From contig OZ242296.1 in assembly GCA_965207735.1 (NCBI GenBank), forward strand, positions 2,336,001 to 2,400,000: a stretch of DNA of 64,000 nucleotides, written 5' to 3'. The notes under the pieces were generated by a model. It was not told the DNA's origin and did not search any database. It saw only the letters and a program-made list of their open reading frames with translations. The DNA comes from Candidatus Versatilivorator sp. (GTDB taxonomy: Bacteria; Acidobacteriota; Terriglobia; Versatilivoradales; Versatilivoraceae). Positions 4,297-11,115 of this stretch are shown here, one piece after another (position 1 is the first letter of the stretch; each line of letters opens with the position of its first letter). The translations under genes were made by a program, and so were the position numbers.

Positions 4297-5154
4297 CTAT
4301 TCCTCCGAGACGATGCCGATGGCCGCGGCTGCCGATTCCTCCTCGACCTTGCGCTTGATCTCCATTGCCAGGTCGTAATGCTGGTCGGCCATCTTGTGAT
4401 AGGACATGTACTCCTCGTAGCGGTCGGGCCCGTGCCTCTTCACCAGGGGATCCAAGGCGGCGACGTCTTGCCCGGCCAGGATGAAAGCGTTCTCCGAGGA
4501 AGGTTTCTGCTCGATGATCTCGTCAATGACGACCCTGGCCTTTTCCCGATTGAGCAAGTTGATGTAGAAGTGGGCGTTAAAGTAGTCGGGATCGTTGACC
4601 AGGCACTTTTCCAAATATTCCAGGCCCTCTTCCGACAGTTCCCACCGCTCCTGAGCAGGGCGCGGATTCAATTTGTCGTAGGCCATGGTCCAATTGACGT
4701 TCCCCACGCTGTAAAAGGGGTCGCCCTGGTCCGGCTCCAGGTCGCAGTTTTTCAGGTAGTACTCCTTGGCCTTATCGAACTCACCCATGTTGAAGTAAAT
4801 GCCGGCAATTCCCTTGACTGAGTTGAGATTCTCCGGGTCCTGCTCCAGCACGCGCTCATAGGCGCTGATCGCTTCTTCTCCGACCTTGATGTTCTGCTCC
4901 GACTGGCCGTTGGGGATGTAAAGCGAGGCGTAGGAGGTGGCCAGGTAGATCTGAGCGTTCAGGAACTCCGGATCCAGCTCGATCGCCTGCTTGAAGCGCT
5001 CCACCGCCCTTTCGTACTCGCCTTCCCGGAAAGCCCGGACCCCCTTGTTGAGGCGGTCCCGGGCCTTCAGCTTGTCTATGACGCCGCACCCAATCATCCC
5101 AAAGGCCAAGGGCAGGAAAACAAGCCCGGCCATCGCTCTGCTTCGACACTTCAT
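4297..5154 (-). CDS. TPR-repeat lipoprotein, last gene of the TonB/ExbBD operon
   Basis: Lipobox-like MIGC after a hydrophobic stretch; TPR patterns AVERFKQAIELDP, AISAYERVLEQDP. Confidence 0.8.
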   Translation of the reverse strand: MKCRSRAMAGLVFLPLAFGMIGCGVIDKLKARDRLNKGVRAFREGEYERAVERFKQAIELDPEFLNAQIYLATSYASLYIPNGQSEQNIKVGEEAISAYERVLEQDPENLNSVKGIAGIYFNMGEFDKAKEYYLKNCDLEPDQGDPFYSVGNVNWTMAYDKLNPRPAQERWELSEEGLEYLEKCLVNDPDYFNAHFYINLLNREKARVVIDEIIEQKPSSENAFILAGQDVAALDPLVKRHGPDRYEEYMSYHKMADQHYDLAMEIKRKVEEESAAAAIGIVSEE

Positions 5155-5216
5155 CGGCTTCCTCCACAGACGAGAAAATTCCTGTTTTTCGGTTTAGGGA
5201 ATGACAGCCGGGGCCA

Positions 5217-5645
5217 TTACTGACCGGACTGGATCTTCGCGGTCATCAATCCGATCTTGTCCACTCCCGCATTGTGGGCGATGTCGATGACTTCAACCAC
5301 CGAGTTGAAGAACAGCGACTGGTGGCCCTGGACGAACATCGTCCTCTGATTTCGGGTCTTGAAGATATCGGTGAGCCGCTCTTCCAGATTCCGAAGATCT
5401 ACATCCTCCTGGTTGATCTTCAAACGCCGCTGGTCGTCAATGGACACCACGATGGTCCGGTTGGACGTATCCTGGGGAGGAGGGTCTCCCGGAGGAGGCG
5501 GTTGGGGGATCTGAGCATCCAGCCCCCTGGGAATCAAGGGCGTGATCACCATAAAGATAATCAGCAGCACCAACAACACGTCGATCAGAGGCGTCACGTT
5601 GATGTCGGCCTTGGGGCCCGCATCGGCCCCAACTGACATTGACAT
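5217..5645 (-). CDS. exbD: Biopolymer transporter ExbD/TolR
   Basis: DINVTPLIDVLLVLLIIFMVITP with the conserved TM Asp. Confidence 0.92.
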   Translation of the reverse strand: MSMSVGADAGPKADINVTPLIDVLLVLLIIFMVITPLIPRGLDAQIPQPPPPGDPPPQDTSNRTIVVSIDDQRRLKINQEDVDLRNLEERLTDIFKTRNQRTMFVQGHQSLFFNSVVEVIDIAHNAGVDKIGLMTAKIQSGQ

Positions 5646-5658
5646 TTTCAATCCTCCC

Positions 5659-6108
5659 TTAGATACCAGGTGCGTTCTTCTTGTCGACCTTGTCCGTCAG
5701 CAATCCGAGGGTATCGACTCCGGCGGACCGGACGGTATCCACCACGTCGACCACCCCTCCATACTTGGCCCGCCGGTCGCTCTTCACGTAGACGGTCTTG
5801 TCCACCTTGGCAGCCAGCAGATCCTGAATGCGTTCGGACAACTGCTGCACGACCAACTGGTCCGACCCCAGGTAAATCTTACCGTCGCGGGTCACCGCCA
5901 CCACCACGGCGTCGTCCTGGTCGGCTTCCCGCATCTCCCGGGGATTGGTGGCCTTGGCCATGTCCACGCTCACTCCCTTCTGCAGCATGGGGGTGATCAC
6001 CATGAAAATGATGAGCAGGACCAGCATGATGTCCACCATGGGCGTGACATTGATGTCCGCCACCACGGCGTTTTTATCCTGAGAGCCACTGTCGACTGAC
6101 ATTGCCAT
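5659..6108 (-). CDS. exbD: Biopolymer transporter ExbD/TolR (second paralog)
   Basis: DINVTPMVDIMLVLLIIFMVITP; VKSDRRAKYG.VVDVVD. Confidence 0.92.
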   Translation of the reverse strand: MAMSVDSGSQDKNAVVADINVTPMVDIMLVLLIIFMVITPMLQKGVSVDMAKATNPREMREADQDDAVVVAVTRDGKIYLGSDQLVVQQLSERIQDLLAAKVDKTVYVKSDRRAKYGGVVDVVDTVRSAGVDTLGLLTDKVDKKNAPGI

Positions 6109-6821
6109 TAGGAACCTCCCCGCTTCAGAAAGTAGTCAATCAGCTCTGATGAGGAATTGTCCATCTCGACGCCAAAGGCTTCCATCTTGCCATTGAAGTA
6201 GTTGAACATCCAAATGGCGGGAATCGCCACGAAGAGACCCAGCGCGGTGGCGATGAGCGCTTCGGAAATGCCGCCGGCCACGGCGGAAAGACCCGTGGTC
6301 TTGGCCGTGGACATCCCCTGGAAGGCGTTGATAATGCCCACCACCGTCCCGAACAACCCCACGAAGGGAGCCGTGCTTCCGATGGTGGCCAGCCCGGGGA
6401 CACCCCGCTTCAACTCAGCGTTGGTGATGGCGGTGGATCGATCCAGGGCGCGCTTGGAAGCTTCAACAGTCGCTGCCGACGTTGTGCTCCCCGACGACTG
6501 ATACTCCTGCAGTCCGGCGATCACCACTTTTGCCAGATGGCTCTTCTGGTTCTGCTCGGCCACGTCGATGGCTTCGCCGATCTTGCCTTCCTGCAGGCAG
6601 CCGGCGACCAGCGGGGCAAACTCGCGGGACTGTTTGCGGGCCGCGTTGAAGGCCAAGTACCGGTCGATCATGACCCCGATCGACCAGGCCGACATGATGG
6701 CCAGAACGATCAGGGTCGCCTTGGCCGTCGGCCCGGAAGCATTCCACATATCCATGAAGGAAAAGCCCACTTCGCCTTGAAGCAGGGATACCGCCAACAA
6801 GTTCAAAGGAACGGACATCAT
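6108..6821 (-). CDS. exbB: MotA/TolQ/ExbB proton channel protein
   Basis: LATIGSTAPFVGLFGTVVGI, GISEALIATALGLFVAIPA. Confidence 0.93.
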   Translation of the reverse strand: MMSVPLNLLAVSLLQGEVGFSFMDMWNASGPTAKATLIVLAIMSAWSIGVMIDRYLAFNAARKQSREFAPLVAGCLQEGKIGEAIDVAEQNQKSHLAKVVIAGLQEYQSSGSTTSAATVEASKRALDRSTAITNAELKRGVPGLATIGSTAPFVGLFGTVVGIINAFQGMSTAKTTGLSAVAGGISEALIATALGLFVAIPAIWMFNYFNGKMEAFGVEMDNSSSELIDYFLKRGGS

Positions 6822-6876
6822 GGGATTACTACCTCCTCGGTTCTCTCACAATTTGGATCTTGCCGATAGGCAAACG

Positions 6877-7638
6877 TCACCCTCTCAAGTTGAAGTTCAC
6901 CGTAATGCGGGTGATGACTTCAACCGGCACTCCATTCAACACGGTCGGCTTGTAGCGCCACTGCTTGACGGCCTCCAGCGCCGACTGAATCAACAGTGGG
7001 TGTCCCTTGACCACCCGCAGATTTTCCACGGAACCCCGCTTGCTGATGACCGCCTCCAGAACGACCGTGCCCTGGATGCGAGCCTGCTTGGCCAGCGCCG
7101 GGTAGCGCGGGCGCACCTGGCGGATCAGGTTGGCGCGTTGCACGTTGCCGCCCACCCGTATGCGTTGGGGAGGCTTGGGCGGAGGCGGTGGGGGGGGCGG
7201 GGGCGGGGGCGCCAGAGAGGTCGGAGCGCCGCCGATCACACCGCCGACCACGCCTCCAAGGACACCGCCCGGGACTCCTCCCGGAACTCCGCCGACCACG
7301 CCGGCGACCATGGCTTCGGGAGCAGGGCCCTCATCCACCACCATGAGGATGTCCTGAGGTATTTCCACCGGGGCCGTGAAATCGGTGACCGGAGTGGTTC
7401 TGACTCGCTTGACCACTTCCGTCGCCGCCGGGGGCGGCGGGGGGGGCGGGGGGGGCGGCGGGGGCGCCACCAGCATAGTGAGCTGTGAACCGACTCCCCC
7501 CAGGGTTTCCGGAAAAAGCATCGGCAGGATGATCGCGAACACGATCAGCACCACGTGAAAAACCACCGAAACGGTGAGGACAACAGACTTTTTCTTGGTC
7601 GTGCCGGATTCCTGCGCATCGGCCAACTGGTCAAACAT
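6877..7638 (-). CDS. tonB: Energy transducer TonB
   Basis: N-terminal TM containing S...H; poly-Pro and GGV(P/L/V) linkers; C-terminal PRYPALAKQARIQGTVVLEAVI...WRYKP. Confidence 0.92.
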   Translation of the reverse strand: MFDQLADAQESGTTKKKSVVLTVSVVFHVVLIVFAIILPMLFPETLGGVGSQLTMLVAPPPPPPPPPPPPAATEVVKRVRTTPVTDFTAPVEIPQDILMVVDEGPAPEAMVAGVVGGVPGGVPGGVLGGVVGGVIGGAPTSLAPPPPPPPPPPPKPPQRIRVGGNVQRANLIRQVRPRYPALAKQARIQGTVVLEAVISKRGSVENLRVVKGHPLLIQSALEAVKQWRYKPTVLNGVPVEVITRITVNFNLRG

Positions 7639-7815: not shown

Positions 7816-9021
7816 TCACGCCCTGGCAGCCCGCGCCACCCTTCTTCTCCGCGCCTGAAAATCATACCAGATGACCAGCAGCTGACTGGCCACTCCGATG
7901 GAGGAATAGGTCCCCACGGCCACCCCGATCACCAGGCAGAAGGCGAAGCCGTTGATCACCTGGCCCCCGAAATAATAGAGCGAGAGCGCCGTGAGAAAGG
8001 TGGAGCCCGAAGTCAGCAGCGTACGACTCAACGTCTGATTGATGCTCCGATTGATGATCGAGGAAATCGATTCTCGACGGCGAAGCCTCAAATTCTCCCT
8101 GATTCTATCAAAGACCACAATGGTATCGTTCATGGAATATCCAACCAGGGTCAACAGGGCTGCGACCACCGGTATGGAAAGCTCGCGGTCGGCAAGGGAA
8201 AAGAACCCCAGGGTAATGATCACGTCGTGGAAGACCGCCACCACGGCCGCGGCCCCGTAGGCGGTGCCCTTGAACCTGAAAGCGATATAGACCAGCATCC
8301 CCAGCAACGCATAGAGGGTGGCGTTGATCGCCTGGCGCTGGAGGTTGCGCCCCACCTTGGGCCCGACGAACTCCGTCTGGAACACCGCGATATCGCCCAG
8401 AAAGGCCTGCTCCTTAACGCTGGCCAGCAGGCGCGGGCTCATCCCTTCCACCGATTCCAGCTCCTGAAAGGAACCGATGATGCCCCCGTTGCGGTCCCGG
8501 TAGTCGGTCACCGCTCGCGCCAGTTCCCCGGGCGTCTTGAATGCCGGGCTCTCATCGGACTCCAGCAGGGAGGTGAGCCCGGCAACGCCGCTCAGGCGGT
8601 CTTCTATCTCATCGGGGGCCGCATTGTTGAGGTCGATCTTGCCCTCGCTCCCGGGAGACGATCCAAAGGCGCTTTGCAGCCCCTCCAGAATGCGTACCCG
8701 CCCGGCATCGGTGTCGGGGCCGACCTCGCCCTCCCGCTGGCCCAGGCCGATGATGACTTCATTCCTTTCCGGGACGTCATAGCGCTGTATGGTGCTGCCG
8801 CTCAATCCCTGCTCGGAGAGAGCCGTCCGAATTCTGCCCAGGTCGGGGGATTCCTTGAACTTGACATAGACCAGGGTGCCGCCGCGAAAATCGATTCCGT
8901 AGCGGGGGCCGCCCTTCAAGTAAAGGGTTGCCAGGCTGGCGGCGATCAGCAGCACGGAGAGGATCAACCACTGCCGTTTCCGGCCGATCCAGTCGATGTT
9001 GACGTCTTTCAGCAACTGCAT
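7816..9021 (-). CDS. secF: Protein translocase subunit SecF with inserted HhH-like periplasmic domain
   Basis: GIDFRGGT, VGPKVG, HDVIIT, GYSMNDTIVVFDRIREN, SINQTLSRT, GTYSS. Confidence 0.95.
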   Translation of the reverse strand: MQLLKDVNIDWIGRKRQWLILSVLLIAASLATLYLKGGPRYGIDFRGGTLVYVKFKESPDLGRIRTALSEQGLSGSTIQRYDVPERNEVIIGLGQREGEVGPDTDAGRVRILEGLQSAFGSSPGSEGKIDLNNAAPDEIEDRLSGVAGLTSLLESDESPAFKTPGELARAVTDYRDRNGGIIGSFQELESVEGMSPRLLASVKEQAFLGDIAVFQTEFVGPKVGRNLQRQAINATLYALLGMLVYIAFRFKGTAYGAAAVVAVFHDVIITLGFFSLADRELSIPVVAALLTLVGYSMNDTIVVFDRIRENLRLRRRESISSIINRSINQTLSRTLLTSGSTFLTALSLYYFGGQVINGFAFCLVIGVAVGTYSSIGVASQLLVIWYDFQARRRRVARAARA

Positions 9022-9161
9022 GAGTTACGTTTTCTCCCGGAGTCCGGGGGCTCGAATATCGTTGCCGTCTCCCCCTTGGACACCGTCCCTCCCCTGAATG
9101 TTCCCAAAAGATGGGACCGGGTCCGAAGCCCGGCCCGGAGCCGCCCGCCGGAATTTCCGGC

Positions 9162-10769
9162 CTAGATGCTCAGGCTTTCCCTGCGCCGGCGGCTCAAGAT
9201 GAACTCGAAGATAAATCGAGAGACGAAGATCGCGGTAAACAGATTGGCCAGCAGCCCCCAGAAGAGGACCACCGCGAAGCCTTTGACCGGCCCGGTTCCG
9301 AACAGAAACAGGAACAGGACTGCGACCACCGTGGTCACGTTGGCGTCCACGATGGTGAGGATGGCTTTGCTGAATCCGGTGCCGACCGATGAGACCACGG
9401 TCTTCCCCGCCCACATTTCTTCCTTGATGCGCTCGAAGATCAGCACATTGGAATCCACGGCCATGCCGATCAACAGCACCACCCCCGCGATTCCGGGCAG
9501 CGTCAGGGTGGCTGAGATATAGACCATGGCCGCCAGCAGAATCACCAGGTTCAGGAGAAGCGCGTTGATGGCGATAAATCCCGAGAGGCGGTAGTAGGTC
9601 ACCATGAACAGGGCCACTCCGACCAATCCGATCAGGGAGGCCATGATTCCCTGCCGAATGGAGTCGACCCCCAGGGAAGCTCCCACGGTGCGCTCCTCCA
9701 TGTAGTCCATGGAGGCCGGCAGGGCGCCCGACCGCAGCACCAAAGCCAGGTCGTTGGCCTCCTGGCTGGTAAAACTCCCTGTGATTTCGCCCGAATCGGT
9801 GATTCTGCCCTGGATGGTGGGAGCCGATTGCACCCGGCCGTCGAGCACGATCGCCAACCGCTTCTGGATGTTCTCGGAAGTGACTCTCCCGAAACGCGTG
9901 GCGCCGTCGTTGGTCAGACTGAAGCCCACCGCGGGCCGGCCGAACTGGTCGTTCTGGGGGCGGGCCATGCGCAGGTCCCGTCCGGTGATGGCCGCCGATC
10001 GGTTGGCGACGTACCAGGCCTGGGTGGGCTCGGAGGCGTCCCGGAACTGAGGAACCCCCTGCAGCAACTCCTTGCCATCGGGGATGACGCCGTTGTACTG
10101 CTCCAGGGCCGCGGCCCGCGAGGGATAGACATCCTGCGGCTCCACGATCTTCAGCTCGAGCAGGGCGGTGGACTTGATGATTTCGCGCACCCGAACCGAG
10201 TCGTCCACCCCGGGAAGCTGGACCAGGATCTGGTACTCGGTAGCGGGACCGTGGTTCTGGATGACCGGCTCGGTGACCCCCAGCTCGTCCACGCGGTTGC
10301 GAATCCTCTGAATCGCTTCCTGCACGGCGCTTTGCCGGATCTGTCCCTCCACCTCCGGCCTCAGGCTCAGCAGGAAGGAATCGGAGGAGCCGGATCGATT
10401 GCTGCGTTGCCAGGCCGGATAGCCCTCGTCGATCACTACCCGCACGTCGACCAGGCGGTCCGGGTCCACCTCCAGAACTTCGATATGGGTGGAGTCCCTG
10501 CGGCGGATTTCGCCAAAGGAGATCTCCTGATCGCGAAAACTCCGCTTGATCCGCTCCACCAACTGGTCGGTCTCGATAGTGAGCGCGTCCCCCGTGTTGA
10601 CCTGCAGAATCAGGTGCATCCCGCCCCGGAGATCGAGACCCAGTCGGATGCGGTCGCGCAGATTCTGCAGCAGGGCATCCCCGCTGGTGGGCAACCCGAT
10701 GATGCCCACTACGCACGCCAGGAGCACGGCCAATATGGTGAAGAACCTCCACCGAAGCTTCCTGGGCAT
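9162..10769 (-). CDS. secD: Protein translocase subunit SecD
   Basis: LGLDLRGGMH, RVDELGVTEP, LRSGALPA, GMAVDSNVLIFERIKEE, GTGPVKGFA. Confidence 0.96.
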   Translation of the reverse strand: MPRKLRWRFFTILAVLLACVVGIIGLPTSGDALLQNLRDRIRLGLDLRGGMHLILQVNTGDALTIETDQLVERIKRSFRDQEISFGEIRRRDSTHIEVLEVDPDRLVDVRVVIDEGYPAWQRSNRSGSSDSFLLSLRPEVEGQIRQSAVQEAIQRIRNRVDELGVTEPVIQNHGPATEYQILVQLPGVDDSVRVREIIKSTALLELKIVEPQDVYPSRAAALEQYNGVIPDGKELLQGVPQFRDASEPTQAWYVANRSAAITGRDLRMARPQNDQFGRPAVGFSLTNDGATRFGRVTSENIQKRLAIVLDGRVQSAPTIQGRITDSGEITGSFTSQEANDLALVLRSGALPASMDYMEERTVGASLGVDSIRQGIMASLIGLVGVALFMVTYYRLSGFIAINALLLNLVILLAAMVYISATLTLPGIAGVVLLIGMAVDSNVLIFERIKEEMWAGKTVVSSVGTGFSKAILTIVDANVTTVVAVLFLFLFGTGPVKGFAVVLFWGLLANLFTAIFVSRFIFEFILSRRRRESLSI

Positions 10770-10812: not shown

Positions 10813-11115
10813 TCACTCGTCTTCCGACTGTTTGGAGACTATAGCGTTTCTGGAGATTTCAATCTTGACCTGATCGGCGACGCGGAGGTGGACCCGATCT
10901 TCCTTCATGCCGGCGACAATACCATAGATCCCACCTGAAGTGACGACCTTGTCGCCGTTACGCAGGTCCTTGAGCATTTCCTGCAGAGCCTTCTGCCGCT
11001 TCCGCTGGGGGCGAAAGACGATGAAATAGAAGATGAGGAAAATGGCGGCGATGGGCAACAGGGCCCCAATAGTGCTCCCTTGCCCATTGGCGGCCAGAAG
11101 AGCCAAAGTTGACAT
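10813..11115 (-). CDS. yajC: Preprotein translocase subunit YajC
   Basis: FYFIVFRPQRKRQK, GDKVVTSGGIYG; synteny tgt-yajC-secD-secF. Confidence 0.95.
   Translation of the reverse strand: MSTLALLAANGQGSTIGALLPIAAIFLIFYFIVFRPQRKRQKALQEMLKDLRNGDKVVTSGGIYGIVAGMKEDRVHLRVADQVKIEISRNAIVSKQSEDE

Follow-up and report, generated by a model that had tools for sequence, protein, structure and literature searches.

A ComEA-class helix-hairpin-helix domain in the P4 domain of acidobacterial SecF, a candidate accessory head of the SecDF export motor

Why a subunit of the protein export machinery should carry what looks like the fold of a DNA receptor is the question raised by a secF gene in a window of 64,000 nucleotides of DNA from Candidatus Versatilivorator sp., an acidobacterium. 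The gene (7816..9021; like all features given here by their window coordinates, on the minus strand) codes for 401 aa and is the sole secF in the genome. The original prediction had singled out an extra segment of about 80 aa between TM1 and the VGP motif and assigned it to the ComEA/HHH_3 class of helix-hairpin-helix (HhH) domains. Its placement was accurate: 8401-8643 corresponds exactly to aa 127-207, between TM1 with Sec_GG on one side and VGP (aa 219-221) on the other. Profiles, a structural model and a fold search together delimit the domain as aa 126-209 (84 residues; 8395..8646), with short strands at aa 129-130 and 206-207 at its termini in the full-length model.

The protein around this insert is a SecF by every measure used: it matches TIGR00966 with 284.9 bits, above the curated cut-off of 160, as well as PF02355 and Sec_GG in Pfam; its AlphaFold model (pLDDT 82.8) has six TM helices with P4 between TM1 and TM2; and Foldseek places canonical SecDF structures at the top for that model, with E about 1e-14. 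TM1, i.e., TM7 in SecDF numbering (aa 15-35; 8917..8979), is seen both as a model helix and in hydropathy. The first part of the P4 base (8665..8880) is modelled as strand 48-55, helix 61-70, strands 77-81 and 88-94 and helix 104-119, and it is to this part that the alignment of the P4 profile with E. coli and Thermus SecF/SecDF is confined. Beyond the insert, by the model and profile alignment, the last P4 strand (aa 211-219) and the VGP motif lead into TM2 (8359..8391). According to PMC5974789, an aspartate in TM10 and an arginine in TM11 have essential roles along with the TM4 aspartate of SecD. Going by position, D299 (8125..8127) and R333 (8023..8025), both invariant in 52 of 52 sequences, are likely to be the first two, and D439 of SecD, invariant in 26/26, corresponds to the third. 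These motor residues are intact. The product of the partner gene secD (535 aa; 9162..10769) has, besides D439, the P1 base and a P1 head that is intact (PF22599, aa 249-352), and yajC (10813..11115; PF02699, E=7e-28) is the upstream gene of the yajC-secD-secF cluster. Thus, the system shares with the solved SecDFs of Thermus (3AQP/5YHF) and Deinococcus (5XAP/5XAN) and the SecF of E. coli (5MG3) the six-TM SecF, the P4 base, Sec_GG and VGP, the invariant Asp and Arg and the gene order; what the acidobacterial P4 adds is a fourth periplasmic domain of 84 residues, the P4 loop measuring 156-244 aa as against 76-114.

Several further features of the cluster may be recorded for their own sake. At SecD aa 58-140, the GG motif is separated from the P1-base helix by some 110 residues without Pfam coverage; this stretch is of equal length in insert-bearing and insert-less genomes. 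The 140-nt spacer between secD and secF (9022-9161) contains a GC-rich hairpin with a T-rich tail at 9114-9136; among relatives it is the hairpin part that differs in length, the part downstream being conserved, and the hairpin could tune the level of SecF relative to that of SecD. Terminator-like sites in the region number 4 against 3.3 by chance, i.e., there is no excess. Directly downstream of secF and on the same strand, 4297-7638 holds a TonB-like gene whose linker is rich in proline, one ExbB/TolQ-like and two ExbD/TolR-like genes, and the gene of a TPR protein, likely a second proton-driven envelope motor beside secDF (TonB_C and TPR by Pfam, the ExbB/ExbD labels by reading the sequence).

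Sequence comparison places the insert near ComEA, at some distance. Taken alone, the segment matches HHH_3 (PF12836) at E=1e-5 over its second half only, and its 26 bits fall just below the curated family cut-off of 27. The ComEA models TIGR00426 and TIGR01259 give E=0.002-0.004, far under their cut-offs (18.4 versus 53.1 bits for TIGR00426), and the GspK-type model T2SSK_1st (PF21687) gives E=0.22, or 12.7 bits versus a cut-off of 26.2. Among 32 aligned homologous P4 regions, 17 match HHH_3 at E≤0.1 and three weakly match PF21687, with a best E of 0.017. A PDB search with the single insert sequence yielded no match at E≤10, so the ComEA link must be regarded as remote and as requiring profiles or structure to be seen. 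A profile of the insert recovers EEPD1 (E=0.005) and ComEA 8dfk (E=0.16) from the PDB, among unrelated weak matches, and two queries of the ESM Atlas returned no usable match. When a profile of eight inserts was run against 1.84 billion representative proteins, 334 matches at E≤0.001 were obtained; among the 150 listed, 90 have SecF flanks, and the other 60, sorted by eye, comprise 28 ComEA-type multi-HhH proteins and 32 SecF fragments.

An assembly artefact, a pseudogene or a recent foreign insertion can be ruled out as the source of the segment: its reading frame is open, its GC3 (0.815) is that of the rest of secF (0.80 and 0.79), the gene is single-copy, and the segment is conserved in relatives. 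The closest named relatives are Terriglobia, Ca. Versatilivorator among them. Nor was there any sign of its removal from the transcript, as no joint skipping just the insert was found in metatranscriptome contigs; contigs of related strains from three runs in two studies cover it, in two cases along with the flank on either side, though contigs as such cannot prove transcription and one of the runs may be the source of the window itself. The open frame, the matching GC3, the phylum-wide conservation in place and a confident model with ComEA as its top fold lift the match beyond chance.

That AlphaFold model, of the isolated domain and built with an alignment of 52 inserts, has a pLDDT of 93.5. 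A structure search against 48,161 solved chains returned 13 at Z≥5, all of which we take to be HhH-type. The best is ComEA 8dss (Z 8.4, rmsd 1.9, 64 residues aligned), followed by Tex (8.1), XcpX (7.1, 73 aligned), GspK (6.8, 74 aligned) and the Thermus ComEA-like 2duy (6.8); the remainder are TEFM, three Spt6-containing entries, DNA polymerase III, two PsbU chains (5.0-5.1) and KIF22. Foldseek with the isolated domain likewise puts ComEA first (probability 1.00, TM 0.60, E=0.059), with PsbU at rank 3 and no match at E≤0.001. A profile-profile comparison with 75 ComEA-like control domains gives 98.6% and E=1e-14 over 64 columns, a figure that is partly circular since the controls were drawn from the insert's own search. 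As a Z of 7-8 alone might reflect a common helical arrangement, and hence be unspecific, the assignment depends on a single fold class occupying the top ranks and on its agreement with the sequence matches. On these grounds the predicted structure confirms the presence in SecF, at aa 126-209, of a folded (HhH)2 domain of the ComEA class.

The periplasmic location given in the original prediction was also borne out, the insert lying within P4; what had been overlooked is its relation to the SecD P1 head. In the full model the insert comes between helix 104-119, the last of P4, and strand 211-219, the last strand. The profiles of SecF P4 and SecD P1 align globally (E=2.7e-6, probability 76%), pairing SecF aa 59-96 with P1-base aa 151-188, and SecF aa 203-250 with aa 346-393 of SecD, so that the insert comes to lie opposite the P1 head; the secondary structure of the model agrees. 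Going by the profiles, this equivalence is positional only and the two heads are unrelated in sequence, with no PF22599 match found in SecF and no local profile match of the insert to the head. The possibility that the insert replaces the P1 head may be set aside, since SecD has a full head and its P1 dimensions are equal with and without the insert (compared in the 21 and 18 SecDs where motif anchors were found). Tsukazaki 2018 (PMC5974789) describes the solved SecDFs as having three domains on the periplasmic side, a P1-head, a P1-base and P4; the P1 head as having a poorly conserved cavity that crosslinks to and grips precursors; and the eight-strand sheet of P1-base and P4 as converting to a barrel. 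When SecD P1 (aa 48-362) and the insert were modelled as a complex, the score was 0.00 (mark 0.32), which speaks neither for nor against binding.

If the fold is that of ComEA, the domain might be expected to bind DNA, as the original prediction had suggested, or more generally a polyanion through a non-canonical surface, and so to couple the proton-driven motor to DNA uptake or envelope polymers. ComEA is, after all, the closest relative in both sequence and fold. With ComEA's DNA-binding domain (PF12836; 8DSS, 8DFK, 2DUY) the insert shares the predicted fold, the start motif, the A..I..YR..G core and the periplasmic location; it differs in having its first G-I-G hairpin replaced, the second glycine of HhH2 missing and the key lysine position absent, and in being acidic, below the Pfam and NCBIfam curated cut-offs and embedded in a membrane motor. 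The residues were counted in 114 inserts, non-redundant at 70% out of 172, against the 75 ComEA-like controls. The start motif K-I-D-L-N (aa 128-132; 8626..8640), counterpart of the I-N-I-N of ComEA, is kept, with D130 in 102/114 and N132 in 110/114, as is the core Y174-R175...G180 (8482..8502), with R or K in 111/114 and G180 in 113/114; L143, L188 and G193 complete the retained core. In place of the first hairpin, profile alignment shows a variable helix or loop (aa 145-163; 8533..8589), its replacement segment longer by about 13 residues at the median and by 18 in this SecF, and the spacing from N132 to R175 has a median of 37 (28-48) versus 24 in 60/68 controls. The second hairpin (aa 191-197; 8431..8451) is degenerate as well: G193 is kept, but the second glycine gives way to S/T/P/D, so that position 195 is glycine in 1/114 inserts as opposed to 51/75 controls. 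The first hairpin had been called degenerate from the outset, and this proved correct.

According to reports on ComEA, that of V. cholerae requires the G-I-G hairpin of HhH1 (G60) and K62/K63 for DNA binding, while R71 was considered structural by the authors (PMC3879209); Bacillus and Geobacillus likewise need the corresponding lysine (K164/K166; PMC9747964). Going by the motif, R175 is likely the counterpart of R71. The kept Y-R...G core can be cited in favor of polyanion binding. The HhH1 elements needed for DNA binding are replaced: G-h-G-x-x-K/R occurs in 1/114 inserts versus 23/75 controls, and any G-h-G in 10/114 versus 62/75, though the fact that only a third of the ComEA-like controls have the lysine counts against the no-DNA reading. 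This insert has a net charge of -9 as against +9 and +5 for the two ComEA domains of the host, each of which has both G-I-G hairpins. At the family level net charge was dropped as an argument against DNA binding, the medians being -2 for inserts and controls alike.

The distribution of the competence genes bears on the same issue. The host has two free-standing canonical ComEA-type genes (G000:C1:3412323-3412493 and 1437111-1437296) and encodes ComEC (C1:692911-693786), which suggests that it is possibly naturally competent. In a picked sample of 30 insert-bearing and 30 insert-less genomes, ComEC is encoded in 59/60 (29/30 and 30/30, respectively) and small ComEA-type genes in 19/30 and 20/30. 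The presence of ComEC in the host and in 59/60 of the sample can be counted in favor of a polyanion role, but the near-equal counts indicate that the insert neither replaces nor accompanies ComEA or ComEC and is decoupled from the competence genes; as a substitute for ComEA it can be ruled out, given also the two canonical genes of the host. In one family of the host's class (f3), most genomes encode ComEC but a small ComEA-type gene (E≤1e-5) is seen in 3/22. From the residues, DNA binding by the insert is unlikely, contrary to what had been suggested, and a wider role in polyanion binding can be considered improbable too.

The question in the original prediction of whether the domain is lineage-wide and merely unannotated can be answered in the affirmative. 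A search confined to Acidobacteriota with a 52-row insert profile matched 238/301 genomes at E≤0.001, the host and three unpublished genomes (G024, G049 and G152) included. Among the 63 unmatched genomes, SecF gave one unbroken match in 58, the pattern to be expected where there is no insert, and in five no SecF was found. Ten of the weakest positives were inspected, of which nine have the insert in SecF and one is false, giving a corrected spread of about 237/296, or 80% of the sampled genomes with a SecF, most positives being uninspected individually. The precomputed Pfam lists of 41 insert-bearing matches name no HHH family. P4 loop lengths in 108 SecFs are bimodal, with 47 of 76-114 aa without the insert and 61 of 156-244 aa with it (four SecFs were dropped for want of an N-terminal anchor, and three of the 47 short ones are from other phyla, found in a plasmid collection). 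One plasmid, the 27-kb pDESTI.01 of Desulfomonile tiedjei (NC_018026.1, L117:1620-4208), carries a complete secD-secF pair adjoining integrase and cation:proton antiporter genes. The insert is found in separate SecFs and in fused SecDFs, and cultured Geothrix is among the carriers; of 20 insert-bearing clusters looked up, two had a named organism (Acidobacteriota and Ca. Aminicenantes). Among the 90 SecF-flanked matches listed, three (P0014, P0118, P0125) have clear tandem double inserts, and a SecF with a 244-aa P4 loop (L113) may have a further one.

On a tree built from the SecF core without the insert (102 rows, after dropping 33 near-duplicate loci and adding 27 database proteins), the distribution of the insert requires 5-7 changes between presence and absence, at least five of which are forced by strong branches; insert-less SecFs are nested among insert-bearing ones, and a second tree is similar. 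In one family insert-less SecFs align with their insert-bearing sisters with one clean gap, some 80 residues long. These phylogenies would most simply be read as one gain, early on, and repeated losses thereafter, though the trees, whose outgroup is not monophyletic, are not reliably rooted. Pooled pairwise dN/dS of the insert is 0.28 and 0.32 among seven and ten close relatives (the pairs not being independent), while in the same sets the P4 base has 0.12 and 0.16 and the TM part 0.08 and 0.11. The insert is under purifying selection, with dN/dS of about 0.3, and evolves at the same time faster than the other three regions of SecF that were measured. It could be argued from this rate, and from the at least five independent absences on well-supported branches, that the domain is a near-neutral relic of an old gene fusion, tolerated for being folded and harmless. 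This would leave it hard to explain why about 80% of the genomes sampled, from dozens of families, have retained the domain when a precise one-step deletion is evidently possible; core residues are held there at about 20-35% overall identity, and dN/dS is well under 1. A relic is accordingly the least probable of the alternatives, and a very improbable one.

Of more weight, though still doubtful, is the view that the domain has no specific ligand and acts structurally or sterically, stabilizing P4, keeping the motor at a distance from its neighbors or from peptidoglycan, or restricting how far the P1 head swings. The strongly conserved positions are nearly all those of the ComEA structural core, only P148 (69/114) being new, whereas the surface, and the segment in place of the first hairpin, are variable in length and charge (net -13 to +4); moderate purifying selection fits a requirement to stay folded, and clean loss has happened repeatedly. 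Yet, going by PMC5974789, the SecDF of most bacteria does without such an element, the three non-acidobacterial SecFs are short, and tandem doubling is easier to understand as added binding surface, though a spacer would also accommodate it.

We put at roughly one half the probability that the insert is an accessory protein-contact "P4 head" of the proton-driven SecDF export motor. The domain would stem from a ComEA-type gene, from which it would have been acquired a single time, early in Acidobacteriota, and its adjacent ends would allow it to be seated on the P4 sheet without breaking it. The head would move as the strands of P1-base and P4 switch between sheet and barrel, making loose contact, without a fixed motif, to emerging preproteins or to a periplasmic folding or envelope partner, and might improve export without being essential to it. 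The fold class, the slot corresponding to the P1 head, the lost DNA contacts, the selection, the wide spread, the tandem doubling and the intact motor residues support a contact head. Against it stand the dN/dS of the insert at 2-3 times that of the P4 base and TM region, its clean absence from at least 58/301 genomes with an intact short SecF, the unchanged P1 dimensions of SecD where it is lost and, with the conserved positions nearly all in the ComEA core, the want of any conspicuous novel surface patch that is conserved.

Parallels for such a use of the fold exist. PsbU, an exported member of the same fold, works among proteins on a membrane complex; it is extracytoplasmic like the insert and of the same fold class, but there it is a free-standing subunit rather than an inserted domain, its scores are weak and no sequence-profile match was seen. 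Another exported relative working among proteins is XcpX/GspK, in the tip of the secretion pseudopilus, whose domain is described in PMC6211770 as calcium-binding and of about 106 residues. The helical domain of this minor pseudopilin (3CI0, 5VTM; PF21687) resembles the insert in its fold class, in aligning structurally over the greatest length (73-74 residues, Z 6.8-7.1) and in being part of an exported secretion machine, while the insert is without the pilin helix. In a sequence alignment, acidic residues in the 114 inserts form no invariant cluster beyond D130, and the host genome has no PF21687 match. A role in contacts between proteins, like that of GspK, which the original prediction had offered as an alternative, would be a better fit than DNA binding.

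By titles and abstract openings, literature searches on SecF or SecDF with HhH, ComEA, Acidobacteria or extra domains gave nothing relevant (subscription journals and supplements lay outside their scope), and one on GspK with helix-hairpin-helix was empty. The HhH-bearing SecF is a real and, apparently, so far undescribed variant of SecDF. Were the domain a mere spacer, the outcome would be a correction of annotation and a possible phylum marker. A more far-reaching and unlikely proposition is that most Acidobacteriota have a two-headed SecDF, in which the HhH domain, in the slot pseudo-symmetric to that of the P1 head, would be a further proton-coupled head that grips substrate, driven by the sheet-to-barrel change and passing it to or from the P1 head; if so, insert-bearing and insert-less sister species would be a natural test of the power-stroke and ratchet models. 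Close relatives with and without the insert, together with the cultured Geothrix carriers, open the role of the P4 head in export, and the work of P4 on substrate, to clean deletion and graft. SecDF has been described with one moving head, on SecD; in most members of this phylum, itself large and abundant, SecF appears to have gained a further folded domain in the mirror position, with the fold of a DNA receptor stripped of its DNA contacts. Beside GspK and PsbU, it would be one more instance in which the ComEA fold, outside the cytoplasm, has been turned to work other than with DNA.
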